This document shows, one piece after another, positions 935-39,173 of a stretch of 64,000 nucleotides of DNA. A program made the position numbers and the translations under genes. This DNA comes from Akkermansiaceae bacterium (lineage in GTDB: Bacteria > Verrucomicrobiota > Verrucomicrobiia > Verrucomicrobiales > Akkermansiaceae). The notes beneath the pieces are model-generated. The model was not told where the DNA came from. It did no database searches and was given only the letters and a program-made list of their open reading frames with translations. Each line of letters starts with the position of its first letter. The stretch's first letter is position 1. The stretch covers positions 102 through 64,101 of the forward strand of contig CAIVKO010000233.1 of NCBI GenBank assembly GCA_903906515.1, in the 5' to 3' direction.

Positions 935-966
935 GAAGCGTCTTCATTCAAATGGCTTCATGCGGT

Positions 967-1010
967 CCCCCGTTTGTGGGAATGGACAGACTCGTGGAGT
1001 CGGGTAGATT
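967..1010 (+). promoter_or_regulatory. Conserved box plus putative -35/-10 promoter, copy 1 (upstream of the GH95 operon)
   Basis: CCCCCGTTTGTGGG-AA-TGGACA-N16-TAGATT. The same geometry occurs at 26090, 39040 (minus strand) and 39130. Confidence 0.72.
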
Positions 1011-1131
1011 CGCGACATGCCCAGAAGGTGCTCGCGTTGGTCATCCGTAGGGCCAATATCAGATTCGTCATTCTCAAGGTGACCGTGACATCGTGAAGCG
1101 CAGGGGATGATGGGAAATCATAGATCAAAGT

Positions 1132-3768
1132 ATGAAGAACAAGACAAATCAAATGAACCAATTGCTTATGTTAGAAATTGTGGGCCTGCTATCATTCGCA
1201 GTGCATGCCAACGCCGCGGAACTGGTCTTGCGCTACGACAAGCCTGCCAATGACACGATGACGGAAGCCTTGCCTGTGGGCAATGGGAAGTTAGGCGGGA
1301 TGATTCACGGCAAACCGACCCTCGAACGGGTGGTCCTCAACGAGAGCAGCCTGTGGACCGGTGATGAGAAGACGGCCACCGGCGGCTACGATGAGATGGG
1401 ATCCTATCAGACACTTGGCGTTCTCGGCATTGATACCACCGCCCGGTCGGGCGCGGTAGCCACGAAGGTGCCTACAGTGGTTTGCGCCAGCAAACAGGAG
1501 TCCTATTACCAAACTGAAAGCATTGCGCAGAGCGTGGACAACAATCCTGGAACGAAATGGTGCGTGGTGCCTGATGGCGTGCCGCTGGTCTGGGAACTCA
1601 GGTTGCCGGAGGCCCGCGTGGTCAATCAATACTCGATCACCGCCGCCGGTGACGCTCCCGAGCGTGATCCATCGACTTGGGAATTCAGCGGATCTAATAA
1701 TGGAAAGGACTGGACCTCGCTTGATAGCCACGAAAACGAACCCCCCATGGCCAGTCGCGGCGAAGTGAAAACCCATACCTGCAAGAACACCGCGCCGTTC
1801 AAGTCTTACCGACTGACCTTTGCGCCAAAGAAGGGGGTCATGCATTTCCAGGTGAGCGAGATTTCCATCCCGGGCGTGGTTTTCCCCGCTAAAACCGCCC
1901 CCGCCGTCGTGGATGGCTATCACCGCTCGCTCGACCTTGCCACGGCCACTCATGTGGTGACCTACAAATTGGGCGATGTGACTTACAAGCGCGAAACCTT
2001 TGCTTCCCACCCCGACGAAGTGCTGGTCATGCGGTTGACTGCGGATAAACCCGGGTCGTGCAGTGGCGCGGTCCAACTCAATGGCGGGCACCGCGAAACC
2101 ACGCAATTGGTAAAAAACGGGCTGCAGTTTTCCGGTGAGTTGCCAAATCACTTGAAGTATGAAACCCAAACTTTGGTGTTGAATGAAGGCGGTTCGATCC
2201 AGACGGGTGAAGGGCAGGTTTTCTTTGACCAATGCGACAGCGTGACCGTCCTGTTGGCAGCGGCCACGGATTACACGTATAATCATTCTTCTAGCTACCG
2301 TGGAGGGGACCCGCGGGCGATCGTCGGAAAACGTTTGGCTGCAGCGTCCGCAAAGAAATATGACGCTCTGAAATCAGCGCACATCAAAGAGTTCAATTCT
2401 TATTTCAACCGGGTGGAGCTCGACGTCGGGGCGACGCCGAGCGACCGGCTTGCCCTGCCGACTGACCAGCGCAAGGTGAAGCATGCCGAAAAAGGCGACG
2501 ATCCTGATCTTGAAGAGTTGATGTTCCAGTATGGCCGTTACCTGCTGATCAGTTGTTCGCGGCCCGGCGGGCTGCCGGCGAACCTGCAGGGGTTGTGGAA
2601 TGATAACAACAATCCTCCTTGGCACAGCGATTACCATTCGAACATCAACGTCCAGATGAATTACTGGCTTGCCGAACCGGCCAATCTTTCCGAGTGCCAC
2701 ACGGCATTTTTGGATCTAGTCACAAGCCAGCTCCCCGCTTGGCGCAAGGCAACGGCGGAAGCCCCGGAATTCAAGTCGGCTTCGGGTAAACCTGTTGGCT
2801 GGGCGGTTAGAACCTCTCACGGCATCAACGGGGATATGGGTTGGCAGTGGGACATCACGGCGAACGCCTGGTATTGCCAGCATTTCTGGTGGCACTATGC
2901 TTATACCGGAGACAAAACCTGGCTGAAGAACGTGGCCTATCCGATCATGAAGGAGATCTGCGAGTTCTGGGAGGTGCGCATGAAAACGCTACCCGACGGC
3001 ACCCTGGTGGTCCCTAACGGCTGGTCACCCGAGCAGGGACCGATCGAAGACGGTGTGAGTTACAACCAGGAAATCTGCTGGGATCTTTTCAACAACTACG
3101 TGGCCGCCAGCGAGGCGCTGGGTGTCGATGCGGAATACCGGAAGAAAATTGCGGACATGCGCGACAAGCTGATGGTTCCGAAGATCGGGAAATGGGGGCA
3201 GCTCCAGGAATGGATGGAGGATCGTGATGATCCAAATAATCACCACCGCCACACCTCGCACCTCTTCGGTCTATTTCCGGGAGAGCAGTTTAGTATTTCC
3301 AAAACCCCCGAACTGGCGGCAGGGGCCAAGAAATCACTTGATGCGCGTGGCCCGGTGGGTGATGTCAGGGAGTGGTCATTTGCTTGGCGGACCGCACTCT
3401 ATGCCCGGTTGCGTGAAGGAGAAAGCGCCCACACCATGTTCCGAAACCTGCTGAACGAGCGGAATACATGCCTCAATCTATTCGGCAATCATCCGCCGAT
3501 GCAGATGGACGGCAACTTTGGTATCACCGCAGGCGTCTGCGAGATGCTGATGCAGTCATACACCGGTACGATCGAGTTGCTGCCGGCAATTCCAAAAGCG
3601 TGGCCGACGGGCAGCGTCAAAGGGCTGAAGGCCCGAGGAAACTCCACGGTGGATATCGCATGGGTCGACGGCAAGGTGACATCCTACAACATTCGATCAG
3701 CCATTCAGCGCGAGGTCAAGGTGCGCGTGAATGGTGAAGAGAAATCCGTTAAAACCAAGCCGGAATAA
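1132..3768 (+). CDS. GH95 alpha-L-fucosidase family enzyme with an inserted discoidin/CBM32-like domain
   Basis: Signal peptide. Motifs ALPVGNGKLG, LNESSLWTG, QYGRYLLISCSRPGGLPANLQGLWN, HRHTSHLFGLFPG and QMDGNFG. Confidence 0.92.
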   Translation: MKNKTNQMNQLLMLEIVGLLSFAVHANAAELVLRYDKPANDTMTEALPVGNGKLGGMIHGKPTLERVVLNESSLWTGDEKTATGGYDEMGSYQTLGVLGIDTTARSGAVATKVPTVVCASKQESYYQTESIAQSVDNNPGTKWCVVPDGVPLVWELRLPEARVVNQYSITAAGDAPERDPSTWEFSGSNNGKDWTSLDSHENEPPMASRGEVKTHTCKNTAPFKSYRLTFAPKKGVMHFQVSEISIPGVVFPAKTAPAVVDGYHRSLDLATATHVVTYKLGDVTYKRETFASHPDEVLVMRLTADKPGSCSGAVQLNGGHRETTQLVKNGLQFSGELPNHLKYETQTLVLNEGGSIQTGEGQVFFDQCDSVTVLLAAATDYTYNHSSSYRGGDPRAIVGKRLAAASAKKYDALKSAHIKEFNSYFNRVELDVGATPSDRLALPTDQRKVKHAEKGDDPDLEELMFQYGRYLLISCSRPGGLPANLQGLWNDNNNPPWHSDYHSNINVQMNYWLAEPANLSECHTAFLDLVTSQLPAWRKATAEAPEFKSASGKPVGWAVRTSHGINGDMGWQWDITANAWYCQHFWWHYAYTGDKTWLKNVAYPIMKEICEFWEVRMKTLPDGTLVVPNGWSPEQGPIEDGVSYNQEICWDLFNNYVAASEALGVDAEYRKKIADMRDKLMVPKIGKWGQLQEWMEDRDDPNNHHRHTSHLFGLFPGEQFSISKTPELAAGAKKSLDARGPVGDVREWSFAWRTALYARLREGESAHTMFRNLLNERNTCLNLFGNHPPMQMDGNFGITAGVCEMLMQSYTGTIELLPAIPKAWPTGSVKGLKARGNSTVDIAWVDGKVTSYNIRSAIQREVKVRVNGEEKSVKTKPE

Positions 3769-3790
3769 CAAACAATTCCAAAGCTGATAT

Positions 3791-6700
3791 ATGAGTTCCC
3801 GATTTCCAAAGTGTGGTGAAATGACGTTCATAAACCTGCGTTTGCATGGGGTGGGGGTGCTCGTGGCATTGTGTTTGGTGGCGGTGTCTGGCGTCTTCGG
3901 TGCCGAAAAGCTTGAACGCTGGAAGCATGTGAAAGTTGAAGATGAGAAGTGGACCCCTACGAGCGGAACGGGTGATGGTAAACTCGGTTTCGGTGAATTC
4001 ATGATCTTTTCAGGCACCACTTTTCACCAGACCGGTGGCAAGCTGGAAAGTGACAATACTTGGGGCGCGCCTGTTGCTTCTATCGGCTGGAGCACAGGTG
4101 GCTCCTACAGGATGTCGGGTGCGGCCATCTTCCAAACTTCGACTGACGTGTTGCTTGGACGGGATAAGAGTGGTCACCAGGTCGCCGACTGGAGTTTGAC
4201 CGATACTGCCAGTGCCACGCTCGGCGGGGCTCTGGATTTCTGCGCCGGCGCCGCCAACCATCTTTATCTTGACGGTGCGGCCACTTTTCAGGCGGGAGCT
4301 CTCCGCGGTTTGGATGCTGACGGCGAATACATCAGTTTTGCATGTGGTGCCACCGCTTCCCAGTCCACGCTGACGATCGGAACCCAAAACCAGACCTACT
4401 ATGAGGACTTGGTTGCCAAAGGGTACATTCGCGTCAATGGCGTAAAACAAACCAACTTCAGCAAGTTCCAAGTCAAAGGCAGCACGTTGTCGCTGGTGCC
4501 GCTGTCTATAAAATTAGCGATCACCTCCGTCAACGGAGGTTCCAGTCCGAAGGCTGGCACAGGATTCGATGTGACACTACAAGTCCAGGATATGAATAAC
4601 GCTCCGGCCAAGATCGAGGCGGACCGCATGGTGACGCTTCGGTGTAAGTCCGGTGGCGGCACCCTGGGTGGAACGACGACCGTGACCATTCCGGCAGGAA
4701 CCCATACCAAGAAAATCAGCGGCGTAAACTACACCAAGGCCGAAAGTGGTGTGGTGATAACGGCCTTGTGTGACGGGGCGGGGGATGGCGACAGTGCGGC
4801 CTTTATCGTTGCGGCTGGGGAGCCCAGCAAGTTAGTGTTCTGCACCCAGCCGAGAGCGGCGGTGCTGGGGTGGCCAATCAGTCCGGCTGTGACGGTGCAG
4901 ATCCAGGATGCCAACGGCAATATCGTGGTCAACGATACCCGCCGTGTGACGATCAGCAGCTCTACAACCGCTTTCTCCGCAGATAGCATACTCGCCACGA
5001 ATGCCGTTGCCGGCATAGCGACCTTCAGCGTGCTCAAACCGGTTAAGGCGGAGACAGCCGCCGTGATGCTGGCCAGTGGGAAGGCATTGGAAGGGGGATC
5101 TTCCGGTGCCTTTTCAGTTTCATCGAATTGTGCAGTTAGTGCCACGCCAGAAAAGGTTGCGCAGTTCAATGCCTTTAAGGAGATACCCATCACCGACATT
5201 ACGCCGCAGGGGTGGTTGCGCGAGTTTCTGGACCGGCAAAATAGCGGACTCACTGGAAACCGTGATATTTTGTCCTATCCTTTCAACACCTGCCTCTGGG
5301 CTGGTAAAATCCCTTACAACGGAAACGGCGACGACTGGTGGCGTTACGAACAAACTGCCTACTTGACCGATGGCATGCTTCGGCTCGGCTATCTTATCCA
5401 CGATGAAAAGCTCATCCAGACCGGGCGTGATGGCGTGGATTATGTGCTCGCGCATCCCATGGATAAAGGTCGCCTCGGCCACCCGTTTTTCAGTAGTCAG
5501 TGGCCGATGGCAGTCTTTTTCCGCGCCATGCAGGCCGAATACTCCGCCACCCATGACCCCAAGCTTTTGGAAGCACTGCGCCAGCATTATCTTTCCTATT
5601 CAATTGAGGATTTGAAGTGTGGTCGTAATGTCATCAATCTTGAGGGTATGCTTTGGACCTATGGCAAGACCGGTGATCGCAAACTTCTTAATCTCGCCAA
5701 TGCGATATACGATCAAGGGCAGGGTATATGGGGAAGAGGTGCGTTGGCAGCGCCAGCAAAGGATGTTGATCATGGGGTCACCTACAATGAAATGGCAAAA
5801 TTGCCGGCGATCTTCTATGCCTACACCGGAAACAAAGAGTATCTGGATGCTACTCTGAATGCCTTCAAGAAGCTGGATCGCGATCACATGTTGCCAGATG
5901 GTGTTCCCAGTTCGAATGAATTTTTGGCGGGTAAGGACGTTTACCAGAGCCATGAAACCTGCGACATCTCGGATTATACATGGAGCGTCGGATATCTCCT
6001 GATGGCCACTGGCGACGCGACATGGGCAGACCGCATCGAAAAGGCCATTTTCAATGCAGGGCCCGGCTGTGTCTCCAAGGATTTCAAGAATCTCCAGTAT
6101 TTTTCCGGCGTCAATCAGGTCATCGCTACAGGCGACTCCAACCACAACAAGCATTTTCATGGTTCCACCTGGATGGCATACAGGCCTTGCCATGAGACGG
6201 AATGCTGCGCCGGCAATGTGCACCGCTTCATGCCGAACTTTGCGGCGCGCATGTGGATGCGTGACGCCAATGGCGGGCTGGTGGCCTCTCTGTATGGACC
6301 TTCCTCGGCAACACTGCCGATCAATCAGGGGCGCCAGCAACTGACCGTAACGGAAGAAACCGGATATCCTTTTTCCGAGACCATCACTTTCAAGTTTAAT
6401 ACGCCCACGCCTGTTACGATGCCATTCTCGTTCCGAATCCCTGGCTGGTGCGTAGCCCCGTCAGTTACGGTCAACCAGCAGCCTCATGACGGTTCTCTCA
6501 CATCCGGCAAGTTTGTAACCCTGAACCGGACCTTTGTTGATGGCGATACCGTTGTCTTACGCCTGCCTATGCCCGTGAAGCAGATCGCGTGGGAAAATCA
6601 AGGAGTCACGGTAGAGCGCGGACCATTGCTGTTTGCCTATCCGGTGCCGGAGAAGGTATTAACTGATGATCGGATCTATCAGAATATGAGAGGTAAAAAA

Positions 6701-7021
6701 TCTCCGGATACGGTTCGTTTCCCCGCGCTCGATATCCGTCCTGATGGAGCATGGAACTATGCACTCGCGCCAAAGTCAGCGGCGGATCTCATGCTTGTGA
6801 ATACGGGTTCAAAGGGTTATCCGCTGGATCCCGGGGCCAGCCCCGTGGTGATCAAGGTGCCCGCCCGGAAGGTGAACGGGTGGACGCTTCTCGAAAACCG
6901 CTATACACCACCCCTGCCGGACAAGGACAAAGTGGAATGTGAGGCCACCGTTGAGACGCTTACGCTTGTGCCGTATGGCAGCACGCGGTTGCGAATCGGG
7001 GTGTTCCCTGTCGCGCGATAA
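3791..7021 (+). CDS. Multidomain GH127-like (beta-L-arabinofuranosidase/DUF1680) enzyme with N-terminal beta-strand-rich and Ig-like domains
   Basis: Signal peptide. Motifs PQGWLREFL, HGVTYNE, HETCDISDY, ECCAGNVHR, VTEETGYPFSETI and LTLVPYGSTRLRI. Confidence 0.85.
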   Translation: MSSRFPKCGEMTFINLRLHGVGVLVALCLVAVSGVFGAEKLERWKHVKVEDEKWTPTSGTGDGKLGFGEFMIFSGTTFHQTGGKLESDNTWGAPVASIGWSTGGSYRMSGAAIFQTSTDVLLGRDKSGHQVADWSLTDTASATLGGALDFCAGAANHLYLDGAATFQAGALRGLDADGEYISFACGATASQSTLTIGTQNQTYYEDLVAKGYIRVNGVKQTNFSKFQVKGSTLSLVPLSIKLAITSVNGGSSPKAGTGFDVTLQVQDMNNAPAKIEADRMVTLRCKSGGGTLGGTTTVTIPAGTHTKKISGVNYTKAESGVVITALCDGAGDGDSAAFIVAAGEPSKLVFCTQPRAAVLGWPISPAVTVQIQDANGNIVVNDTRRVTISSSTTAFSADSILATNAVAGIATFSVLKPVKAETAAVMLASGKALEGGSSGAFSVSSNCAVSATPEKVAQFNAFKEIPITDITPQGWLREFLDRQNSGLTGNRDILSYPFNTCLWAGKIPYNGNGDDWWRYEQTAYLTDGMLRLGYLIHDEKLIQTGRDGVDYVLAHPMDKGRLGHPFFSSQWPMAVFFRAMQAEYSATHDPKLLEALRQHYLSYSIEDLKCGRNVINLEGMLWTYGKTGDRKLLNLANAIYDQGQGIWGRGALAAPAKDVDHGVTYNEMAKLPAIFYAYTGNKEYLDATLNAFKKLDRDHMLPDGVPSSNEFLAGKDVYQSHETCDISDYTWSVGYLLMATGDATWADRIEKAIFNAGPGCVSKDFKNLQYFSGVNQVIATGDSNHNKHFHGSTWMAYRPCHETECCAGNVHRFMPNFAARMWMRDANGGLVASLYGPSSATLPINQGRQQLTVTEETGYPFSETITFKFNTPTPVTMPFSFRIPGWCVAPSVTVNQQPHDGSLTSGKFVTLNRTFVDGDTVVLRLPMPVKQIAWENQGVTVERGPLLFAYPVPEKVLTDDRIYQNMRGKKSPDTVRFPALDIRPDGAWNYALAPKSAADLMLVNTGSKGYPLDPGASPVVIKVPARKVNGWTLLENRYTPPLPDKDKVECEATVETLTLVPYGSTRLRIGVFPVAR

Positions 7022-7045
7022 GATTTCCTCTGTAAAATTCATATT

Positions 7046-10000
7046 ATGAAAAATGTTATAAAAAACCTTAATTTATGGGTGGTGTTTATCGCGTTGGCCG
7101 GTTGCCTGAGTAGGCCTGTTCATGCGGCTGGCAATGAAATCCGGTTGGAAGATCTGGCCAATCTCAATCTGATTGAAAGTGGAGGTGGAGCACCGAGAAA
7201 GGATCGGGCGACGTCGGATCATCCGTTGCAGATGGGTGGCCGAATCTATGAACATGGATTGGGTCTTCATGCTCCGGCTGTGGCTATGTTCAGTCTCGAT
7301 GGAAAGACGGAAAAGTTCCATACACTCCTTGGGTTTAGTGATTTTCCAGGTGATCGCGGTTCAATCGAATTCATTCTGACCGGAGACGGGAAAGTCCTGT
7401 ATCGGAGTGGTGTGATGAAGGGCGGTTTGTTTAGCAATGGGGCGGTGACAATAGCCGCCGAGGCTCCCAAGGTGGTTGATGTTTCTCTTGTAGGAGTGAA
7501 AAAACTCAAGATTGAAGTGACCGATGGAGGCGATAACAAGTATGGGGACCATGTAAATCTGGTAGATGCTGCTTTTACATGGAATGGTACACAGCCACGG
7601 ATCATAGAAGTGGAAGAATACGTGGGACACTCTTTTCCCACGGTTGGTGGTGATAAGGCAAAATCTCCGGTTCAGGCATTGTCCAATCCGTGGACCGGAA
7701 AATGGATCGGACCTGAAAAGGCTGAGGCGAATACGTGGATTTGTTACCGCAAGAGTTTCAAGGTGGACCGGGTCCCCTCTACGGTTCCTGCACGTATCGC
7801 TGTGGATTCAAAATACTGGTTGTGGATCAATGGCAAGTTGGTGGTCCGCGAGGGCGGTCTTAAACGCGGCCCCACACCGAATGACGGGTATTATGACGAG
7901 GTCGAACTTGCCCCATACATCAAACGGGGAGATAATACGATTGCCGTTCTAGCATGGTATTTCGGCAAGCATGGGTTTTCCCACAAGAGCAGTGGCAAGC
8001 CGGGGTTGGTGATGGAGGCTAAAATTGAAAAGGATGTGCTTGCTTCCGATGGGACTTGGAAAATGCTGATTCATCCGGCTTTCGGGACCGCAGGTGAGCC
8101 AAAACCAAATTACCGGTTATCGGAGTCTAGCATTCTGTTTGATGCGAGCAAGGACATCGGTAAGTGGATGGATTCGTCGTATGACGATGCCTCCTGGACT
8201 GCCCCGTTAGAGTCGGGAACACCACCGGTGGCCCCTTGGGGTGATTTGGTCCAGCGGCCGATTCCACAATGGAAGGATTATGGTCTGAAAGCCTATACGA
8301 ATGCGGCGGCGCTGCCAACAGTCAGCGATGGCAAGGTGATCAAGGCCAGACTCCCATACAACGCGCAGGTGACTCCATATTTTAAGATCGAGGCGACCGC
8401 CGGTCACAAGATCGACATACGCACTGACGATATTAATGGCGGCGGTGAAGCCAATGTTCATGCCGAATACATCACGCGGGATGGTGTGCAGGAGTATGAG
8501 ACGCCCGGCTGGATGAACGGCCATGATGTCGAATATACGATTCCAGCCGACGTTAAAATCCTATCGCTGCAATTCCGTGAGTCTGGTTACAATGCAGAAT
8601 TCGCGGGATCGTTCCGTTGCGAGGATCCGTTCTACAACTCTCTTTGGGAGAAATCCAAACGCACTCTTTATGTCACCATGCGTGATAACTACATGGACTG
8701 CCCGGATCGTGAGCGGGCGCAGTGGTGGGGTGATGCTGTCAATGAACTTGGTGAGGCGTTTTATGTGTTTGATCCGCCCGGTTACCAGCTCGCACGTAAG
8801 TCCATCCTCGAACTCGCGAAATGGCAGAGGGAAAACAAAACGATCTATTCTCCCGTCCCGTCAGGCAACTGGGCGGCGGAACTCCCTCCCCAGATGCTCG
8901 CAAGTGTCGGTAAATATGGTTTCTGGTTATACTATTTTAATACCGGCGATGTGGCAACAATGCGTGAGGTGTATCCGCATGTCCGTGATTACCTGACGGT
9001 TTGGAAACTGGATGAAGATTGTCTGGTGATCCACCGCAAGGGCGATTGGGACTGGTCCGACTGGGGTAGTAATATCGATGTTAAACTCCTGGACAGCGTT
9101 TGGTATCACCTGGCGTTACAAGGGGCGATCGAAATGGCCAAAGTGTGCGGGGCCGAAGCCGATCTTCCAGCATGGCAGGCGAGAATGAAGGCCGTCGAGA
9201 AAGGGATCAACACGAAATTATGGAACGGGAAAGAGTATCGTTCGCCCGGATACACGGGTGACACGGATGATAGAGGAAACGGTTTGGCCGTGGTGGCCGG
9301 AATCGCAGGGCCAGATAAGTATTCAGCTCTGCGCGATGTTCTGGACAAACATCGCAATGCGAGTCCTTACATGGAGAAGTATGTGCTGGAGGCTTTGTTC
9401 ATGATGGGTGAAGCGCAGTTGGGGCTTGATCGGATGAAGCAGCGCTATGATGGCATGGTCAAGCGGCCGATCTCTACACTGGCGGAAAATATGGACGGCA
9501 GCGGAACCTACAACCATGCATGGAGCGGCGGTCCGCTGACGATGATGTCGCAATATGTGTCTGGCGTGGCACCGGAGAAGGTGGCCTATGAGAGGTATCA
9601 TGTCCTGCCGCAAATGGGGGACCTGACCACGATTGAGTCCGTGGTGCCGACGGTGAAGGGCAATATCCAGCTCTCGCTGAAGCGTGAGGCTGCATCGTTA
9701 GAATTGAAGTTGGTGTCACCGAAGGACACGAAGGCTGTGGTCGGTCTTCCTCAGGAAAAAGGACGAAACATTGTCAGCGTGGTTCTTAATGGCAAGACCG
9801 TTTGGAAAAACGGCAAAGCGGGCGCGACGGTGCCTGGTGTGGTCTGCATGGGCAAAGATGAAAGGTATTGTCGTTTCGAGGTGCCCCCTGGAACGTGGAT
9901 TTTTTCCGTGCTATATGATGGAGTTTCTTCTTTGCCTATTCCTCTCACCCCTGCTCAGCTTGCCGAATTTCCACTGAAGCTGTCAGAGATCCGGGTTCGT

Positions 10001-10849
10001 GATCCATTCATTCTCACGGATCAAAAGACAAGCAACTATTATCTCTATGCCCAATGCGGGAATCGGTTGTTGAATGACAATTTGGGAACCGGTGTGGAAG
10101 TCTATCGTAGCAAGGATCTTGTCAACTGGGCAAAACCGGTGCAGGTTTTCGAGCGGCCTACCTCAAATTTCTGGGGCGGCCAGGAAGTGTGGGCGCCCGA
10201 AGTACACAGGATGGGTGACTCCTATTTCATGTTTGTGTCATTTCCCGGACGCCAAGGCGGACGGGGTACCCAGATTCTGAAAGCGCAACGTCCAGACGGG
10301 CCGTTCATGATTGCAGGTGAAAATGCGAACACACCTCCCGAGCAACGGGCTCTGGATGGCACGCCGTGGGTCGATGCCGATGGTAAGAACTGGCTGGTTT
10401 ATTGTCATGAGTGGTGCCAGGCCATCAACGGAGCTGTGCGCGCGGTGCGGATGAACAGCGACTGGACTGCAAGACAGGGTGAATCAATCCTGCTTTTCAA
10501 GGCGTCGGAGGCACCCTGGGTCCGAGCGTATAGTGAAAATAATTACGTCACTGACGGCCCGTTTCCATATCGGACGAAAGACGGGAAACTGCTCATGATC
10601 TGGTCCAGCTTCCGCAAAGGAGGCGACTATGCGGTGGGTGTGGCAAGGTCTGATAGCGGAAAAATCGAGGGGCCGTGGATTCAATCAGGTGAGCCTTTGT
10701 TTCCCGATAATGGAGGGCATGGTATGTTCTTCCGGGATTTGTCTGGAAACCTCCGTTTGGTGTTGCATCAGCCGAATCAGAGTCCTCAAGAACGCGTGAA
10801 ATTTATCAAAATGAAAGAAGTGGATGGGAGATTGGAGATGGAGAGGTAA
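7046..10849 (+). CDS. NPCBM/NEW2 + GH78 alpha-L-rhamnosidase-like + GH43 fusion
   Basis: N-terminal NPCBM (EHGLGLHAP...DGGDNKYGDHVNL), GH78 motif DCPDRERAQWWGD, and C-terminal GH43 five-bladed propeller motifs IRVRDPFIL, WAPEVH, LDGTPW and TDGPF. Confidence 0.85.
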   Translation: MKNVIKNLNLWVVFIALAGCLSRPVHAAGNEIRLEDLANLNLIESGGGAPRKDRATSDHPLQMGGRIYEHGLGLHAPAVAMFSLDGKTEKFHTLLGFSDFPGDRGSIEFILTGDGKVLYRSGVMKGGLFSNGAVTIAAEAPKVVDVSLVGVKKLKIEVTDGGDNKYGDHVNLVDAAFTWNGTQPRIIEVEEYVGHSFPTVGGDKAKSPVQALSNPWTGKWIGPEKAEANTWICYRKSFKVDRVPSTVPARIAVDSKYWLWINGKLVVREGGLKRGPTPNDGYYDEVELAPYIKRGDNTIAVLAWYFGKHGFSHKSSGKPGLVMEAKIEKDVLASDGTWKMLIHPAFGTAGEPKPNYRLSESSILFDASKDIGKWMDSSYDDASWTAPLESGTPPVAPWGDLVQRPIPQWKDYGLKAYTNAAALPTVSDGKVIKARLPYNAQVTPYFKIEATAGHKIDIRTDDINGGGEANVHAEYITRDGVQEYETPGWMNGHDVEYTIPADVKILSLQFRESGYNAEFAGSFRCEDPFYNSLWEKSKRTLYVTMRDNYMDCPDRERAQWWGDAVNELGEAFYVFDPPGYQLARKSILELAKWQRENKTIYSPVPSGNWAAELPPQMLASVGKYGFWLYYFNTGDVATMREVYPHVRDYLTVWKLDEDCLVIHRKGDWDWSDWGSNIDVKLLDSVWYHLALQGAIEMAKVCGAEADLPAWQARMKAVEKGINTKLWNGKEYRSPGYTGDTDDRGNGLAVVAGIAGPDKYSALRDVLDKHRNASPYMEKYVLEALFMMGEAQLGLDRMKQRYDGMVKRPISTLAENMDGSGTYNHAWSGGPLTMMSQYVSGVAPEKVAYERYHVLPQMGDLTTIESVVPTVKGNIQLSLKREAASLELKLVSPKDTKAVVGLPQEKGRNIVSVVLNGKTVWKNGKAGATVPGVVCMGKDERYCRFEVPPGTWIFSVLYDGVSSLPIPLTPAQLAEFPLKLSEIRVRDPFILTDQKTSNYYLYAQCGNRLLNDNLGTGVEVYRSKDLVNWAKPVQVFERPTSNFWGGQEVWAPEVHRMGDSYFMFVSFPGRQGGRGTQILKAQRPDGPFMIAGENANTPPEQRALDGTPWVDADGKNWLVYCHEWCQAINGAVRAVRMNSDWTARQGESILLFKASEAPWVRAYSENNYVTDGPFPYRTKDGKLLMIWSSFRKGGDYAVGVARSDSGKIEGPWIQSGEPLFPDNGGHGMFFRDLSGNLRLVLHQPNQSPQERVKFIKMKEVDGRLEMER

Positions 10850-10902
10850 TGCTTCTATCAAACTGATCATACATTTTGAATTAAAACCTAAAGACAAACA
10901 AA

Positions 10903-12840
10903 GTGAGAAATAGATATGCAATTCATTCCGCAAGAGCGATACTGAATCACATCGCCTTATTTGCCATTGTGGTTTCATATTCCGGTGCCGCCGATGCGGA
11001 AACACCAGTTACACCGCAAGTAGCCAAGGCTGCCGCAAGTCGGGGATTTGCGATTAACAACGGTGACCGGGTGGTATTCCTGGGAGATAGTATTACCGAG
11101 CAGCGACTTTATACGACTTATCTTGAAGCATACTGGCTTACCCGTTATCCCACGTATCGGTTGTCTTTTCGTAATGTCGGGTGGGGCGGCGATACGGCGT
11201 GGATGCGTCAGCGATTTCAAACGGATAAGGACGCGATGTATGCAGCTGCTCCCGAGGTGCAGCAGGCGATGATCGAGAAGGCGGTTGCGGCCGGGCTTGG
11301 GCGCGATGTGCTTCCTCTGAAACCAACGGTTGTGACGATTGATTTCGGGATGAACGATCATGAATATCAAGCATTCCGACCGGATATCTGCAGCACGTAT
11401 GTGCGTAGTCAGAATCAACTAACAAAAATTCTGAAGGCTAGCGGTGCACGTGTTGCGTTGATTACGCCGCAACCCATTGAAGATCGACGGCCGGATCCAG
11501 ATCAGGACTTGAGAAATCAGTCCCTGAGGCAATTTTCCGAGGCTCTCAAGGGTGTGGCAGCAACACAGAACGTCGCGTTCGTTGATCAGTTTAATCCCTA
11601 CATGGCTACCATGATGAAGGTCCGCGCTGCCAATCCCAATGCATTTGTCGGTGGCGGAGACGCTCTGCACCCCGGGCCGGCAGGGCAACTGATCATGGCA
11701 TGGTCCATCCTCAAGGGACTTGGTGTGCCGTCTGTGGTGTCGCGGGTTGAATTGGATATGGCACGTTCACTCGGCAAACAGGTGGTGGTGGCGGAAAATT
11801 CCCAGGTATCAAATGTCACGCTGGACAAGGGTGTAATCAGTTTTGATCGACTTGATAGTGCGCTGCCCATGCCGGTTGATGATCGTGCCGAACAGGCGCT
11901 CCAGCTCATCCCATTTCTCGAAGATCTTAACTGTTATACATTGAAGGTCGCAGGTCTGAAATCGGACTACTACGATGTGCGGATTGATGGCGAGAGCGTC
12001 GGCGGCGTAACGAGCGAGGAGTTGGCCAAGGGCTGGAACATGGTCATGGTGCCAAGCCCTGTGACGCGACAATCGCAGGAAATTCTCAAGGGTGTATTCA
12101 AGAAAAACGACCTTTACTTCGAGCGCTGGCGCAAATGCCAGTTAAACGTTCGGCTAACCGGGGACGGTACCGCCATGTTTGACAGTCAGGGCAACAGTCA
12201 GTTGAATCCTAATTTGGGCCCAATCCCCGACCTGGATAAGCAAATCGCTGAATGGGAGGCGAAGATCGACGCTGCGCGCCAGCCGAAGACGCACCGCATA
12301 GTGCTGGTGCCGACGAAACGGGAGATAGTGCCTCAAGTCCCCCTGTCGGCGTTGATAGGCAAGGACGTCCCCTCCGGTGCTGTGTGGCTGGATGCTCAGG
12401 ACTTGAGTCATGTGAAGCTCGGCTATGGCACCGTAGGTTCGGGTAAGGCGATCGGTGGCAAGAATCCCATTTCCATCGGTAAACAAATTTTTGAACACGG
12501 GATAGGAACGCATGCGGCCAGTATGACGGAGGTGGACCTTGCGGGGACGGCGACCCGATTCGTTGCGGCGGTCGGGGTGGATGATATGGCTGGGCCAGCC
12601 GGCGTCGGTTCCGTGATTTTCCAAGTCTGGGTGGATGATGTGAAGAAGGCCAGTTCCGGGCTGATACAATGCGGAGATGCACCCAAGGTGCTCTCCGTCG
12701 ATCTGAGAGGTGCTAAGCGCATGAAACTTGAGGTCACCGACGGCGGTGACGGCGCGTCCTGTGATCTTGCCGACTGGGGCGGCGCTGCTGTGTTTGCCTC
12801 AGGTAATGCAGTGAAGGTTGTGCCGGTGGTCGGTCCTTAA
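10903..12840 (+). CDS. SGNH/GDSL hydrolase (probable esterase) with C-terminal NPCBM domain
   Basis: GTG start and signal peptide. SGNH blocks VFLGDSIT, NVGWGGDT, FGMND and DALHPGPAG. NPCBM motif HGIGTHAAS...DGASCDLADW. Confidence 0.85.
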   Translation: MRNRYAIHSARAILNHIALFAIVVSYSGAADAETPVTPQVAKAAASRGFAINNGDRVVFLGDSITEQRLYTTYLEAYWLTRYPTYRLSFRNVGWGGDTAWMRQRFQTDKDAMYAAAPEVQQAMIEKAVAAGLGRDVLPLKPTVVTIDFGMNDHEYQAFRPDICSTYVRSQNQLTKILKASGARVALITPQPIEDRRPDPDQDLRNQSLRQFSEALKGVAATQNVAFVDQFNPYMATMMKVRAANPNAFVGGGDALHPGPAGQLIMAWSILKGLGVPSVVSRVELDMARSLGKQVVVAENSQVSNVTLDKGVISFDRLDSALPMPVDDRAEQALQLIPFLEDLNCYTLKVAGLKSDYYDVRIDGESVGGVTSEELAKGWNMVMVPSPVTRQSQEILKGVFKKNDLYFERWRKCQLNVRLTGDGTAMFDSQGNSQLNPNLGPIPDLDKQIAEWEAKIDAARQPKTHRIVLVPTKREIVPQVPLSALIGKDVPSGAVWLDAQDLSHVKLGYGTVGSGKAIGGKNPISIGKQIFEHGIGTHAASMTEVDLAGTATRFVAAVGVDDMAGPAGVGSVIFQVWVDDVKKASSGLIQCGDAPKVLSVDLRGAKRMKLEVTDGGDGASCDLADWGGAAVFASGNAVKVVPVVGP

Positions 12841-12902
12841 TATGAATGTGATTCTGGTTGATAGATGAATTAATGATTGATGAAAAAAATGTTAAAAAAA
12901 CA

Positions 12903-14504: not shown

Positions 14505-14519
14505 TAAAAACAACAAGTT

Positions 14520-16886: not shown

Positions 16887-16940
16887 AATGAAACAAAAGA
16901 AATGGAGTATATAATGAAACAAATAAAAATGGAGTATAGC

Positions 16941-18389: not shown

Positions 18390-18420
18390 TGGGTGTTGGT
18401 GTTTCTCACAGGTGTCAAAT

Positions 18421-21702: not shown

Positions 21703-21727
21703 TAAACCGTAACACGTTATTCAATCT

Positions 21728-25324: not shown

Positions 25325-25357
25325 TAAAACCCCGTAGCCTTTCATCCGTTATCTTCC

Positions 25358-26065
25358 ATGTCAGTTTACCCGATCATCGTTGTCGCTGTTCTAATGGCTA
25401 TGCTCCCGCCGTTGCACGCCCGTGAACAACCTGCCACACGCGCTGAAATCCGCCTGCTCGCCTTTCAACCCGACCTGGCTACTGACGAGGCCTACGTCCA
25501 CGACCCCGATGCGCCCGCCGAAACCGTGGCTATAAAAGTTTCTATCAAATCCTATCTGAATCACGAGTTTGACACCGTTATGCTCACCGGAAATCGGATC
25601 GTGATCACCACCAAGCCGGAGCGTGTCTCGATCACCCGCTCGAATGAAGTGTTAGGAATGGCCGATCTTCCGGATGGGGTGCGATCAGCCATTCTACTGT
25701 TTCTGCCGGCACCGCCCAACGGTAAGACCCGCTTCCATATCATGGTCATTGATGATTCAAAGCGCGCTTTCCCTGTTGGTTCGTTTCGCGTCTCCAACCT
25801 AAGCCCACTACCTGTGCGCATCGTGCTAGAGGAAAAATCCTACGATTTTAAGCCTGGGGAAGTCCAACTCATCACCGATCCGCCCGTGCGTGCGGGAAAA
25901 CAATCCGGCATGAAAGCCTTTGCTTTCCACGACAAGATCTGGCACCGCATCGGCTCGGGAATCTGGCCCGCGCCGGGCACTAACCGTGTCGTGCAAGTCT
26001 TGTACGGCAACACAGTCAAGGGGCAGGTGCAGCTCCGCGCCTTTGACGACGTCCCACCCCGCTAA
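25358..26065 (+). CDS. Small secreted hypothetical protein, partner of the PilX-like gene (copy 1)
   Basis: Signal peptide, 235 aa, beta-rich (LLFLP...VIDDSKRAFPVGSFRVSNLS). Distant homolog of the ORF at 63362 in the same position. Confidence 0.8.
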   Translation: MSVYPIIVVAVLMAMLPPLHAREQPATRAEIRLLAFQPDLATDEAYVHDPDAPAETVAIKVSIKSYLNHEFDTVMLTGNRIVITTKPERVSITRSNEVLGMADLPDGVRSAILLFLPAPPNGKTRFHIMVIDDSKRAFPVGSFRVSNLSPLPVRIVLEEKSYDFKPGEVQLITDPPVRAGKQSGMKAFAFHDKIWHRIGSGIWPAPGTNRVVQVLYGNTVKGQVQLRAFDDVPPR

Positions 26066-26089
26066 AACTCCCGCGTTTTTTGAAGCCCT

Positions 26090-26133
26090 CCCCCATTTGT
26101 GGGGGTAGATATTACTGGAAAGATGGCTAGATT
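26090..26133 (+). promoter_or_regulatory. Conserved box plus putative -35/-10 promoter, copy 2 (upstream of GH29)
   Basis: CCCCCATTTGTGGG-GG-TAGATA-N16-TAGATT. Confidence 0.72.
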
Positions 26134-26204
26134 GAACTTTGTATCCGCTCGACAGAACTAACGTTATGACAATTTCAGGTTGTTATAAAAACCTAATAGG
26201 TGGG

Positions 26205-29703: not shown

Positions 29704-29816
29704 GAAAGTGCGGATTTGGTCATTGCAGTAATTGTCTTCTTTTTATTGTAAATGTCTATCGCTAATATCACGTTCTTATGGTGAAATCATCATGAAACCA
29801 GACCGTTGTTGTGATC

Positions 29817-32228: not shown

Positions 32229-32244
32229 TTAATCCAATCCTAAC

Positions 32245-35318: not shown

Positions 35319-35511
35319 CATGGTGAATCGCAAAACTACGACGCTTACGAAAAGTGACGCTGAAACGACAGCAATATCACAGTGCCCAAGATCGAGCGCT
35401 TACGGCATCTGGATGGTGTCCGCGCTCAGGCGGCATCCGTATCCCGGCATGGAACTTCCTCTGGTTCTTCGCATTAATGAAGGATGGTCGCGTTGCCGGC
35501 GAATTTGCCTA

Positions 35512-38500
35512 TTATTTTGTGGCCACGAGACGAGCGAAGCGTTTGGTCTTGCCGCCGAACGGAATGTGGGCAACGACGTCGTTCAGACCGTTAGAATCAG
35601 GGCCGGTGACCACGAAGTTCACACCGCCGTCCTGTCCACTGGTGGCAGGGACCGGGATGGAAGTCGTCCAAGAGCCGGCACTGAGGTCATCACTGAGTTC
35701 GAGATGGAGTTGCGCCGGTGTCATGGCATCTACGCGCTTGAAATGCAGGACCAACTCGCTGCCACTGGCCTGGCTGGCGGGTAGCAACCCGGGGGTGTCG
35801 AGGGACGAATGGGTCGGAGAACCAAGAATCCATGCCATGCCGTAGGCCACACCCTCGCTGTTGAGAGAATCGAAGGCATGGCCGCCAGCCCAGCTCGTAA
35901 ACGAACCGCCGCCAGCGGCTAGCGACAATGTTTTGCCATCACCCGACACTTGGAATTGGCTGAAGGTGGCTGTCGCGCCATCAATGCGTATGTTGCCCGC
36001 TGCGACATACGCCTGATAGTCGGCCGCTCCCTTGCCGGTGATCGTCAGGGTGGCTGTGCTGCCGGATGCGAAGGTGATGTAGCCTGAGCCGAAGGTGTAA
36101 TTACCGGCGTAGCCAATCTTGCCTGCGGTCAGACTGGCGTTGCCCGAGAGCTCAACATGACCCCAGCCCCCATAACTCCCGAACGTCAGACTGCCGATGT
36201 TCGCCACCGCGTTGTCGGTCATGGTCATTTTGGATCCATTATACCCCTGTATGCTAAAGGTGTAGACACTACTGGCGCCGTTGAGGCTAGTCGCGTTGAA
36301 AGAGGCATCGCCGGACATGTTGTAAACACCCCAGCCATTAGGATTCTCACCAATCCCGAAATTACCATATTGACCGGTAATCGTGATGGAACCACCCGTC
36401 TGATTCAGAATCGCGCCGGCAGTATTATATTTGCCAACCATGAAGCTGTTGTTTTGAGGTATCACGTATTTGCCGGTGATGGTCGTGGTCGTGTTTCCAG
36501 ACGGCACCAGATTGCCCGTGATGATGTCAGTATAGGTCGCGGTGATGGTATGATTCGACCCCACGTTGCTGAACGTGTAATTGGTCGCCGGAACAACATT
36601 TACCCCATCCACCGTGAGCGTATTCACATGATAACCCAGGGCAGGCGTGATGGAATAGATTTGGTTGTCATAGTAATTGAGGGTCGTGACACCACTCGGA
36701 GTAATCGATCCGTTGGGGCTTTGGGTGGCGGTTATGGTGACGGTGGTGCCGGGCGCGAAGGTCGCGGTGATGGTATGGTTTGTCGTCACGTTGACGAATG
36801 CGTAACTGGTCGCCGGAGGCGTAACCGGGACATCATCCACCGTGAGCGTGGCGACATGATAGCCCGGGTCAGGCGTGACAGAGTAGGTGGTCGTGCTGCC
36901 GAAAGTCACCGGATTCGCGCCGGGCGGAGTGATCGTACCGTTGGTGCTTTGGGTGGCGAGGATAGTTGGGTTGGCTACCACGGGTGCAAGCGACAACGTG
37001 CTGCCCGACAATAGGAACTGGCTGATTGTCGCTGAAGCGCCATCAATGCGTATGTTGCCTGCGGCGACATACGCCTGATAGTCCGCCAACCCCTTGCCGG
37101 TGATCGTCAGGGTGGCTGTGCTGCCGGATGCGAAGGTGATGTAGCCTGAGCCGAAGGTGTAATTACCGGCGTAGCCAATCTTGCCTGCGGTCAGACTGGC
37201 GTTTCCCGAGAGTTCAACATGACCCCAGCCCCCATAACTCCCGAACGTCAGACTGCCGATGTTCGCTACCGCATTGTCGGTCATGGTCATTTTGGATCCA
37301 TTATACCCCTGTATGCTAAAGGTATAGACACTACTGGCGCCGTTGAGGCTAGTCGCGTTGAAAGAGGCATCGCCGGACATGTTGTAAACACCCCAGCCAT
37401 TAGGATTCTCACCAATTCCGAAATTACCATATTGACCGGTAATCGTGATGGAACCACCCGTCTGATTCAGAATCGCACCGGCAGTATTATATTTGCCAAT
37501 CCAGAAAAGTTGGTTCTCACCGATTATGTGAGAATCCCATTTACCCACGGTCGTGGTCGTGCTTCCTGGAGGGATAAAATTACCGGAAATCACGATTACA
37601 CCTACATTGAACGGACTGGAGGTCGCCCCTGTCAGTAAACTAGTGCTGGCGGCCAACGTTAAGCCATTCCCTACCGTCGTGGGTTTGAGATTGCTGAACG
37701 TCGCCACACCGTTGACGGCTCTCACGGTGAGGGTGCTGTCTGAAGAGATTGTTCCGCTGACCGTCACATCGGTAATGTTATCGCCGGTCACGGTATTGCC
37801 GTCGGCATCTTGCACCAACACCGTCACAGCCGGGCTGATCACTGAATCAGGCCTCGTGTTGCTCGGTTGGACGCCAAACGCCAACTTGCTGGCGGGTCCC
37901 GGATTGTTGGTCTGGGTGGAGTTGACCGAACTGGCGGCATAAGTGCCATCGCCGACATAGACCGCCCGGATGGTATGAATACCCGTCGCGAGGGTGCTGT
38001 CGGTATAGGCGGCTACCCCGCCGGAAACGTCCACAAAGGCCTTCGCTACGCCGTCCACGGAAAAGACGACCTTGCCGCTTGCCCCTGTCGCAATGACGTC
38101 GTTGGTTTTAACCGTCGCCGTGAAAACAACGTCCTGGTGATAGACGGACGGGTTGACCGAAGAGTTCAGTGTGGTGGTAGTGACAATTCCGGTCGTGTTT
38201 GTATTGAGCGCCTCATTCCAGACCTGTGCGATCTTCTGGTAACCGACCGCATTGGGATGCAAGCCGCCGACGTCCAAGTCCGTGGCGATATTCATCGCCT
38301 CATACATGGGAACGTAAACCACGTTCCGGCCAAGGGCCTGGTGGCTGGCCACGATGCCCGGGATGGTGGCGTTGTAGGCCTGCACGTCGGTCTGATGTCC
38401 GACTATGGGTGGGATCGACGCCACGTAGAGTTTCACACTTGGCCGGTAGCCATAGATGTGGTCGATAAGAACACTCAGGCGAGCCGGGGCGTTGGCCACG

Positions 38501-38922
38501 TCATAAGGTATATAAATGTCATTAGTGCCGATCATCAGCAGGATCTTGTCCGGGGCGGCCCCGCTGGGTCCGATCCACGTCACCAGATTCTCGTCTATGC
38601 CGGACCGCCCGCCACCCGCTACGATGGTGTAGCCGCCGTGGCCCTCGTGATGCGTTTGGCCTGCGGCAGTGAGAGTCGGAGTCGTGTTGTCGGTCTGCGA
38701 GCCCACGAAGGTGAAAGTATCTAACCAGTTAGTCAGGAGGGTATTCAGCGGGGCGCGGTAGCCGCCGAGTACGTCGTTGCCTCTGGTGATCGAGTCGCCC
38801 AAGGGCATGATATTGCCTAAAGCGGTTGGCGTCTCGGTGCCAGCGCACACTACATCGCTTACGCCGGAAAAGGCCGTCAGGCAAAACGCAAGTGCAAATT
38901 CATTTAAAAAGCGGCGGATCAT
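35512..38922 (-). CDS. Secreted multidomain SGNH esterase (CE3-like) with Ig-like domains, duplicated beta-strand module, two divergent InlB-B-like repeats and a verrucomicrobial-type C-terminal domain
   Basis: Signal peptide. IMPLGDSITRG, HEGHGG, LMIGTND and LHPNAVGY. Big_3-like TTTTLNSSVNPS. Repeats GTITPPG...TPDPGYHV. Terminus KRFARLVATK. Confidence 0.85.
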   Translation of the reverse strand: MIRRFLNEFALAFCLTAFSGVSDVVCAGTETPTALGNIMPLGDSITRGNDVLGGYRAPLNTLLTNWLDTFTFVGSQTDNTTPTLTAAGQTHHEGHGGYTIVAGGGRSGIDENLVTWIGPSGAAPDKILLMIGTNDIYIPYDVANAPARLSVLIDHIYGYRPSVKLYVASIPPIVGHQTDVQAYNATIPGIVASHQALGRNVVYVPMYEAMNIATDLDVGGLHPNAVGYQKIAQVWNEALNTNTTGIVTTTTLNSSVNPSVYHQDVVFTATVKTNDVIATGASGKVVFSVDGVAKAFVDVSGGVAAYTDSTLATGIHTIRAVYVGDGTYAASSVNSTQTNNPGPASKLAFGVQPSNTRPDSVISPAVTVLVQDADGNTVTGDNITDVTVSGTISSDSTLTVRAVNGVATFSNLKPTTVGNGLTLAASTSLLTGATSSPFNVGVIVISGNFIPPGSTTTTVGKWDSHIIGENQLFWIGKYNTAGAILNQTGGSITITGQYGNFGIGENPNGWGVYNMSGDASFNATSLNGASSVYTFSIQGYNGSKMTMTDNAVANIGSLTFGSYGGWGHVELSGNASLTAGKIGYAGNYTFGSGYITFASGSTATLTITGKGLADYQAYVAAGNIRIDGASATISQFLLSGSTLSLAPVVANPTILATQSTNGTITPPGANPVTFGSTTTYSVTPDPGYHVATLTVDDVPVTPPATSYAFVNVTTNHTITATFAPGTTVTITATQSPNGSITPSGVTTLNYYDNQIYSITPALGYHVNTLTVDGVNVVPATNYTFSNVGSNHTITATYTDIITGNLVPSGNTTTTITGKYVIPQNNSFMVGKYNTAGAILNQTGGSITITGQYGNFGIGENPNGWGVYNMSGDASFNATSLNGASSVYTFSIQGYNGSKMTMTDNAVANIGSLTFGSYGGWGHVELSGNASLTAGKIGYAGNYTFGSGYITFASGSTATLTITGKGAADYQAYVAAGNIRIDGATATFSQFQVSGDGKTLSLAAGGGSFTSWAGGHAFDSLNSEGVAYGMAWILGSPTHSSLDTPGLLPASQASGSELVLHFKRVDAMTPAQLHLELSDDLSAGSWTTSIPVPATSGQDGGVNFVVTGPDSNGLNDVVAHIPFGGKTKRFARLVATK
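35975..36437. repeat. Intragenic direct repeat, copy B (463 bp)
   Basis: Matches 37037-37499 at an offset of 1062 bp, with about 13 mismatches counted by eye. Confidence 0.92.
37037..37499. repeat. Intragenic direct repeat, copy A (463 bp)
   Basis: Matches 35975-36437. The protein copies differ at only one residue (GLAD versus GAAD). Confidence 0.92.
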
Positions 38923-38996
38923 AGTTGTTTTTATGAATTATACTGTTCCGGTCATGCCGTGGATGAACAAGGCTAGCACCTTCTGAGTATTGGGGA

Positions 38997-39040
38997 AATT
39001 TACCTGATTACACGAGTCTGTCCATACCCACAAACGGGGG
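38997..39040 (-). promoter_or_regulatory. Conserved box plus putative -35/-10 promoter, copy 3 (drives the minus-strand SGNH surface protein)
   Basis: Reverse complement reads CCCCCGTTTGTGGG-TA-TGGACA-N16-TAAATT. Confidence 0.72.
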
Positions 39041-39129
39041 ACCGCTTGAAGGGGTGTAGGACGAAAAAGTTTAGCATGCTGTCCAGTCTGCTATTCTGCT
39101 TTAGCTCCACCTCCGTTCTCTCAAGATCT

Positions 39130-39173
39130 CCCCCCTTTGTGGGGGTAGGCAGACTCAGAAATCCGGATACATT
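39130..39173 (+). promoter_or_regulatory. Conserved box plus putative -35/-10 promoter, copy 4 (upstream of the second large operon)
   Basis: CCCCCCTTTGTGGG-GG-TAGGCA-N16-TACATT. Confidence 0.72.

Follow-up and report, generated by a model that had tools for sequence, protein, structure and literature searches.

A conserved, oriented box adjoining sigma-70-like promoters of secreted glycan-degrading enzyme units in an Akkermansiaceae bacterium

We examined a 64,000-nucleotide (nt) stretch of contig CAIVKO010000233.1 from an Akkermansiaceae bacterium (assembly GCA_903906515.1), hereafter the window, in which a 44-base-pair (bp) element occurs four times. Each copy joins a 14-bp box to a promoter of the sigma-70 type in a fixed register. 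The architecture and orientation are the same every time, the copies stand before the first genes of secreted-protein units, the box is selectively conserved in a related genome, and the arrangement recurs in other lineages. With somewhat better than even confidence, we propose that a single sequence-specific transcription factor, probably an activator, recognizes the box, which abuts the −35 region of these promoters.

A preliminary description of this DNA had reported four matches to the pattern CCCCCNTTTGTGGG-NN-TRGRYA-N16-TANATT. Our scan recovered exactly these, at the same positions and on the same strands, with no mismatches (Table 1). Permitting two mismatches in the 44-bp pattern yielded no further match in the window, and none of 100 dinucleotide-preserving shuffles gave a match. 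The core, TCCCCCNTTTGTGGG, is likewise confined to the four copies at zero or one mismatch; when up to three were allowed, one extra site appeared (9607-9621, two mismatches), which is intragenic and within chance expectation. Intergenic DNA accounts for only 4.5% of the window and holds all four copies. Every one of them is oriented toward the next start codon, with 121, 32, 74, and 32 nt between the end of TANATT and the ATG in copies 1 to 4, respectively. This bears out the earlier claim that the element faces the first gene of a unit, including the divergent copies 3 and 4, and it is not the pattern of a repeat that is scattered or found in either orientation, as repetitive extragenic palindromic (REP) elements are. 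Copies 3 and 4 form an inverted pair with 89 bp between them. An origin of this pair as a MITE (miniature inverted-repeat transposable element) or an inverton was considered and rejected, there being no target duplications and no strand-switch joints.

Table 1. Positions of the four element copies, the promoter-leader modules, the units behind them, and one terminator in the window (GH, glycoside hydrolase family)
Feature	Position	Strand	Description
Copy 1	967..1010	+	box 967-980; -35-like TGGACA 983-988; 16-bp spacer; -10-like TAGATT 1005-1010; faces GH95 ATG at 1132
Copy 2	26090..26133	+	box 26090-26103; TAGATA 26106-26111; TAGATT 26128-26133; faces GH29 fucosidase ATG at 26166
Copy 3	38997..39040	-	box 39027-39040; TGGACA 39019-39024; TAAATT 38997-39002; faces GDSL/Ig-domain esterase ATG at 38922
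Copy 4	39130..39173	+	box 39130-39143; TAGGCA 39146-39151; TACATT 39168-39173; faces GH95-like ATG at 39206
Module A, copy 1	956..1046	+	promoter and leader block CCCAGAAGGTGCTCGCGTTGGTCATCC
Module A, copy 3	38961..39051	-	paralogous to the copy 1 module; metagenome contigs of copy 1 cross-match here
Module B, copy 2	26074..26176	+	promoter and leader CCGCTCGACA...ATGACAATTTC, start codon included
Module B, copy 4	39114..39216	+	paralogous to the copy 2 module, start codon included
Copy 1 unit	1132..26065	+	11 genes; gaps of at most 53 bp
Copy 2 unit	26166..28019	+	secreted GH29 alpha-L-fucosidase
Copy 3 unit	35512..38922	-	secreted 1136-amino-acid GDSL esterase with Ig-like repeats
Copy 4 unit	39206..63353 (at least to 63353)	+	11 genes; gaps of at most 87 bp
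Intrinsic terminator of the preceding PEP-CTERM gene	896..936	+	14-bp stem and U-run

The invariant 14-bp box reads CCCCCnTTTGTGGG, or CCCnCnTTTGyGGG in its broader form. It is partly palindromic, with dyad arms CCCnC and GnGGG (CCCnC....GnGGG) around an invariant asymmetric core, TTTGT (centre TTT), and its orientation is identical in all instances. The full palindrome CCCCC-N6-GGGGG followed by TA, which had been noted for copies 2 and 4, is indeed present there, while copies 1 and 3 read GGGAATG and GGGTATG instead. The box was also considered as an intrinsic terminator and rejected in that role, as no U-run follows it and the stem is 3 bp in copies 1 and 3.

Placement of the element follows the kind of gene that lies behind it. 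All four of the secreted-enzyme units carry a copy, against none of the three other units in the window (exact P = 0.029), which comprise a XylR-like regulator of the AraC family, a divergent pair encoding a cytoplasmic GH38 enzyme and a sodium-solute symporter (SSF), and hemE. Specifically, no copy lies in the divergent region between the XylR-like and GH38 genes (29704-29810), as the preliminary description had stated. We asked whether presence and absence across genomes could link the XylR-like regulator to the box; the regulator in locus L020 is 18% identical and hence a paralog, which makes the comparison uninformative. Signal peptides occur at the start of nearly all products of the four units, and most window targets of the box are carbohydrate-active enzymes (CAZymes) without PEP-CTERM tails. 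The unit behind copy 1 encodes GH95, GH127-like, and GH78/GH43 enzymes, GDSL and SASA esterases, a beta-helix protein, GH78, a Verru_Chthon-A-like pseudopilin, and a 235-amino-acid protein, whereas that behind copy 4 encodes two GH95-like enzymes, GH27, a GH36-like enzyme, two GH2 enzymes, GH29, a SASA esterase, and again a Verru_Chthon-A-like pseudopilin. Each of these long CAZyme operons spans about 25 kb.

Copy 1 follows a gene for a protein with a PEP-CTERM tail that ends at 857. Between them lies a strong intrinsic terminator (−28.7 kcal/mol, z = −4.6, with 0 of 200 shuffles folding equally well), which shows that copy 1 opens a new transcription unit. A fifth copy lies just upstream of the window start. 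It is visible at position 3830 of contig L008, whose identity to the window, counted from 864 on, is 94%. There the element (CCCCCTTTTGTGGG-GG-TAGACA-N17-TAAGTT) lies 47 nt before a PATR/PEP-CTERM gene that occupies the place of the gene ending at 857. In another relative (L010, 97% identical; 1289-1503 versus window 866-947), the interval between the PEP-CTERM gene and copy 1 is about 130 bp longer, and within the added DNA the terminator region occurs once more in diverged form.

The hexamers downstream of the box, separated by 16 bp (Table 1), are of the sigma-70 type, with A at position 2 and T at position 6 of every −10, and can be generalized as T[G/A/T]Gnnn, 16 bp, TAnnTT. A consensus promoter scan listed copy 3 as a 9/12 sigma-70-like match, a result that is weak alone given that the scan shows no excess over shuffles. 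If transcription is assumed to start 7 nt past TAnnTT, the −35-like hexamer spans −34 to −29, and the box lies at about −50 to −37, with its centre at about −43.5. The box had been placed at about −42.5, the class II activator position. That value applies to copies 2 and 4 alone, with their 16-bp palindrome; the 14-bp box common to all copies is centred about 1 bp farther upstream and abuts the −35, so that its position is close to class II, not identical. A likeness to NarL/LuxR heptamers had been proposed for GGGGGTA, a sequence that is restricted to copies 2, 4, and the fifth copy and that gives way to GGGAATG in copy 1 and GGGTATG in copy 3, so this likeness is not supported.

Other named classes of site and promoter were compared with the element and rejected. 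For a NarL/LuxR (GerE-type) site or a lux box (TACYYMT 7-2-7; 20-bp lux palindrome), the element lacks both a left heptamer flanked by TA and a dyad of 20 bp. No GG-N10-GC of a sigma-54 promoter (−24 GG/−12 GC) is conserved among the four elements, and copy 2 has no GG in the hexamer region on direct reading. A promoter for an extracytoplasmic function (ECF) sigma factor (GGAAC-like, 16-17 bp, CGT) would have CGT at the right distance; it is not conserved there and occurs only in the spacers of copies 1 and 3. By direct reading, the spacings do not fit the Bacteroidetes-type geometry (−33 TTTG/−7 TAnnTTTG). Finally, a second, distal half-site some 20-22 bp upstream, as found in locus L007 (described below), was sought: copies 2 and 4 have a weak CC-rich resemblance, and copies 1 and 3 have nothing consistent.

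A conservation footprint sets the box apart from its surroundings. A relative present in metagenome assemblies X8, X9, and X10 is about 90% identical across these intergenic regions, with 30 differing positions and 9 gap positions in the 275 bp around copies 3 and 4 and 23 differing positions in the 249 bp around copy 1. None of the 42 positions in the three scorable boxes (copies 1, 3, and 4) has changed, which has a probability of about 0.0075 at the flanking rate of about 11%. In the same three elements, the −35-like and −10-like hexamers each changed at 1 of 18 positions and the spacers at 7 of 48; flanks and promoter spacers overall change at about 11-15%. In X8, for example, the box, −35, and −10 of copy 1 are unchanged while the spacer has three changes, the only differences in copy 3 fall at element positions 15, 22, and 31, and those in copy 4 fall at positions 25, 28, 33, and 43. 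The C-run that begins the box is also kept at the same place in the X8 ortholog of copy 2. This footprint fits what would be expected for a promoter with an additional, still more constrained upstream site, and along with the placement on secreted-enzyme units it agrees with the earlier view of an oriented, promoter-associated element.

The four copies fall into two types. In pairwise local alignments, copies 1 and 3 are similar over 92 columns (−11 to +80 relative to the box start), and copies 2 and 4 over about 105 bp (−16 to +87). Members of a pair are about 75-83% identical, and the start codon lies at exactly the same distance from the −10 in copies 2 and 4. What types A and B have in common is only the box, plus GACTC in the spacer. 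The paired modules precede nonhomologous genes, namely GH95 and the GDSL esterase for type A and GH29 and the GH95-like gene for type B. From these alignments, the four copies evidently arose by reuse of two promoter-leader modules before nonhomologous genes. In the whole assemblies of the relative, only the orthologs of copies 1 and 2 cross-match the region of copies 3 and 4, so the modules are not high-copy repeats.

Within each type, blocks of the leader are kept as well: CAGAAGGTGCTnGCnTTGnTCATCC in type A (1020-1046; 38961-38987 on the minus strand) and CCGCTCGACA followed by ATGAYAATTTC in type B (26146-26176; 39185-39216). The TCGACA of the type B leader is retained in the X8 ortholog of copy 2. 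Such blocks could be second, unit-specific operator sites. The type A leader of copy 1 has no significant fold (z = 0.10) and no covariation, and Rfam gave no match in the window at the gathering score. A small upstream open reading frame in the type A leader was discarded as a candidate because its GTG start is GTA in L010. A Shine-Dalgarno sequence is not recognizable at the first genes (1132, 38922, 26166, and 39206), and hemE (34275) has AAGGAG.

To look beyond the window, we scanned one genome per species (596 Gb) and, separately, JGI metagenomes with the pattern box-N2-TnGnnA-N15-17-TAnnTT. This returned seven loci in the species-representative genomes and six in the metagenomes; by our own estimate about three matches per scan are expected by chance, and most matches are noise. 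Two of the five independent genome matches are Verrucomicrobiota metagenome-assembled genomes (MAGs), and both are placed like promoters. In L005, 10 nt separate the −10 from the ATG of a secreted beta-helix protein, and the neighbors are two PEP-CTERM genes and a GH78 gene; the target would be nearly leaderless. In L007, the element precedes a lectin PEP-CTERM gene, with a further, degenerate box (CCCTCATTTGCGGG) in direct repeat 22 bp upstream. Both boxes are kept at a 97% ortholog of the lectin gene (L021). A 65% ortholog (L022/L023), found via protein homology without use of the motif, carries CCCGCATTTGTGGG-GA-TTGCCT-N16-TATTTT in flanks that are otherwise unrelated, and a 55% ortholog (L024) has no box. 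The layout of box, 2 bp, −35-like hexamer, 16 bp, and TAnnTT thus also stands before genes for secreted or PEP-CTERM proteins in three other Verrucomicrobiota-like lineages, and the lectin orthologs indicate that the architecture is functional in at least one further lineage, though patchy. Three Hylemonella genomes (L001, L002, and L006) also have the 45-bp pattern, conserved inside a longer conserved noncoding stretch, and these are probably unrelated.

The patchiness extends to the closest relatives of the GH95 gene behind copy 1. The nearest named relatives of this gene are MAGs labelled Kiritimatiellaeota, Verrucomicrobiota, or Akkermansiaceae, and the best database relative is 94% identical; look-ups of the exact GH95 protein with two alternative starts gave no match. 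Together with the PEP-CTERM tail of the protein ending at 857 and the N termini of two proteins that resemble Verru_Chthon cassette protein A, these relatives put the source of the window, an uncultured bacterium from lake water, within or close to Verrucomicrobiota. No box is found at the GH95 orthologs of L014, L015, L016, L018, and L020 (75-83% amino acid identity), nor at that of L025 (85%), where the same order of PATR gene and GH95 is kept. In L017 (94% amino acid and 89% DNA identity), the leader remains homologous in its 3' part, and about 58 bp that hold the box, −35, and −10 are replaced by a terminator-like hairpin and then TGTGGGTATCCCGCCCACA. Since close relatives have no box at this gene, the regulon is young, and the box promoter of the GH95 operon is a recent gain. 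A position weight matrix built from eight instances detected no additional weaker copies in 288 kb of fetched sequence.

Some of these relatives show features of their own. In L017, the segment corresponding to window positions of about 960-1020 (1215-1250) contains, along with the hairpin, TGTGGG-N7-CCCACA, in which the half-site words of the box (CCCnCA..TGnGGG) stand in everted order; this may be chance or another arrangement of sites for the same protein. In L014 (1605-4604), where GH95 is 80% identical and no box is present, genes for an ECF sigma factor, a FecR-like anti-sigma protein, and a protein with an FGE-sulfatase domain stand before the GH95 operon. The regulatory logic behind the same enzymes appears to differ between related lineages. 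Abundant intergenic REP-like palindromes, e.g., TTGTGGTGCAGGCCTCTGGC...GCCAGAGGCCTGCACCACAA, occur in L015 (5120-5190, 15715-15790, and 17420-17490) and L020, and L020 has many long repeated intergenic blocks; the window has none of these.

How might the element work? In the mechanism we favor, the factor would bind the box 2 bp upstream of the −35-like hexamer, always in the same register. The bound protein would then adjoin sigma region 4 and the C-terminal domain of the alpha subunit and activate promoters whose −35 is imperfect. The box promoter would drive all units of the locus whose products are secreted glycan-degrading enzymes or surface proteins, and these units would be switched together. 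From the DNA sequence we infer TAnnTT to be the actual −10 and T[G/A]Gnnn the actual −35, and likewise the start sites, the binding of a protein at the box, and activation. The −35-like hexamers are variable and agree with the consensus in part only (TAGATA, TAGGCA, and TAGGAA), as is typical of activator-dependent promoters, and we count this toward such a promoter here.

Yet, several observations weigh against this interpretation. The box abuts the −35 with a 2-bp gap instead of overlapping it, and an asymmetric core with strict orientation is unusual for the site of a symmetric dimer. The sole regulator in the window, the XylR-like protein, has no box in its own divergent region, and neither the window nor the related loci yielded a candidate regulator. 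The matches in L005 and L007 came from a pattern that demands the hexamers, in scans of whole collections for which about three chance matches each are estimated, and about 130 kb of CAZyme loci from relatives (GH95 75-94% identical) contain no copy, which makes the motif patchy. Moreover, searches of RNA runs found none holding the locus, and no start site was mapped.

As a rival explanation, the box may be read by RNA polymerase itself, either as a lineage-specific upstream element for the alpha C-terminal domain or as the extended −35 of an alternative sigma-70-family factor dedicated to secreted and surface proteins. The box keeps its register with the −35 and −10 to the exact base in every copy and in the three other lineages, its orientation is strict and its core asymmetric, the −10 is consistently TAnnTT instead of TAnnAT, and positions −50 to −37 correspond to the proximal subsite of an UP element. 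We nevertheless regard direct recognition by the polymerase as unlikely. Known UP elements are A/T-rich, whereas C and G runs flank the box; the hexamers already look like a housekeeping −35 and −10; neither the ECF nor the sigma-54 geometry is matched; and close relatives run the same operon without the box.

The evidence for a protein site would serve equally well for a repressor whose operator keeps the enzyme operons silent until the target glycan, or products of its breakdown, become available. CAZyme clusters are commonly substrate induced, and two copies have a near-consensus −35 (TGGACA) that might not need activation. But a site that ends 2 bp upstream of the −35 occludes neither the −35, the −10, nor the start, where most repressors act. 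Furthermore, the remaining copies have weaker −35 hexamers, and simple occlusion needs no strict orientation to the promoter, so that repression seems to us a rather improbable role for the box.

Least credible, and in our view very improbable, is that the box is a nonregulatory repeat (REP- or MITE-like, the terminator hairpin of an upstream gene, or a functionless leftover of promoter duplication): the copies can be shown to be paralogous modules, copies 3 and 4 are inverted, and copies 2 and 4 could form a G:C hairpin of 5-6 bp (−10.4 and −10.6 kcal/mol), but the copy 1 hairpin has only 3 bp (−4.2 kcal/mol) and no U-run and lies downstream of a separate strong terminator, no copy is intragenic, at a 3' end, or wrongly oriented, the element is not high-copy in whole metagenome assemblies, the inverted pair lacks strand-switch joints, and the box stays invariant while the spacer drifts, and the box recurs in unrelated flanks in L022.

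The genes behind the box promoters have further features in common. Both long CAZyme operons close with a large protein (21728-25324 and 59937-63353) with an N terminus like that of Verru_Chthon cassette protein A or of the pseudopilin GspK, and the C termini of the two proteins are alike (...FRIVSFHWLNAGEI and ...FHIISFRWLSPDEI). The enzyme operons seem to be coupled to a pseudopilin-like apparatus. An NPCBM/NEW2 domain is found in at least seven enzymes of different families (7046-21702 and 42823-49597), including GH78/GH43, GDSL, beta-helix, GH78, GH27, and GH29 proteins; most carry it at the N terminus, the GDSL esterase at the C terminus. Within the gene behind copy 3 (35950-37570, minus strand), sequences from L017 and L018 match two separate stretches, at about 35953-36444 and 37095-37906, which points to an internal tandem duplication of a module of about 160 amino acids. 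The largest noncoding gap in the window, 550 bp without a long open reading frame or an Rfam match, separates the convergent fucosidase and XylR-like genes (28020-28569).

Verrucomicrobiota play a major part in polysaccharide degradation in lakes, oceans, and guts, and they lack the SusC/D-linked regulators of Bacteroidota. To our knowledge, almost nothing has been established about how they regulate their large arsenals of enzymes. A sharply defined box in a fixed promoter register offers a concrete handle on this problem, through regulon scans, phylogenetic profiling, and DNA pull-down for the regulator, and the box promoter is a candidate inducible promoter for genetic tools. More generally, the reuse of modules, together with the absence of the box in near relatives, shows that the regulon has been rewired on the time scale of species divergence.

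Our search of the literature found no description of this motif. The motif is new, and it belongs to no named box family that could be tested; the kind of element that it would represent, a transcription factor site beside a promoter, is standard bacterial biology. The closest general model is the class II activator-dependent sigma-70 promoter, in which CRP or FNR binds at −41.5, LuxR at the lux box at −42.5, and lambda cI at −42. As in such promoters, a single conserved site lies immediately upstream of an imperfect −35, in a fixed register, and is common to several operons of one pathway. Unlike the sites of CRP, FNR, and LuxR, the box is 14 bp long with its centre at about −43.5, abuts the −35, is asymmetric, occurs in one orientation, and has no sequence similarity to the CRP, FNR, or lux boxes. 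Sites of the AraC/XylS and MarA type are asymmetric, are oriented in a fixed way to the promoter, abut or overlap the −35, and commonly serve sugar-utilization operons. The asymmetry and fixed orientation of the box, along with the two boxes in direct repeat 22 bp apart in L007 and L021, resemble the sites of AraC-family dimers. In contrast to these, no second box is detectable upstream of the window copies, and the only AraC-family gene in the window has no adjacent box. By analogy of layout, to which the resemblance is limited, the AraC family would be an equally good lead.

The history of the modules recalls the reused or "mobile" promoters that were catalogued by Nijveen, Matus-Garcia, and van Passel (2012; PMC3575422). 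As with those promoters, highly similar promoter-leader segments (92 and about 105 bp) stand before nonhomologous genes, and the box promoter is absent at the same gene in close relatives. The copies described here differ in being about 75-83% identical, in lying within 40 kb, and in having no associated transposase or terminal repeats. With respect to the genes controlled, the nearest precedent is the cis-site that accompanies PrsR in proteobacterial PEP-CTERM systems, where an enhancer site and a sigma-54 −24/−12 promoter lie about 63 nt apart; this site is limited to Proteobacteria, and motifs outside that phylum were said to remain to be found (Haft et al. 2006; PMC1569441). Both systems place a shared upstream motif before genes for PEP-CTERM surface proteins. 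They differ in that the promoter here is sigma-70-like with the box adjacent to it, and most of the targets in the window are CAZymes that lack PEP-CTERM tails. More speculatively, and as a possibility that we hold only tentatively, a regulator or RNA polymerase-associated factor conserved across several Verrucomicrobiota lineages may control both PEP-CTERM surface proteins and secreted glycan-degrading enzymes. Its regulon might now be expanding by the copying of modules before 25-kb CAZyme operons, which would make it a nonproteobacterial counterpart of the PrsR/sigma-54 system.

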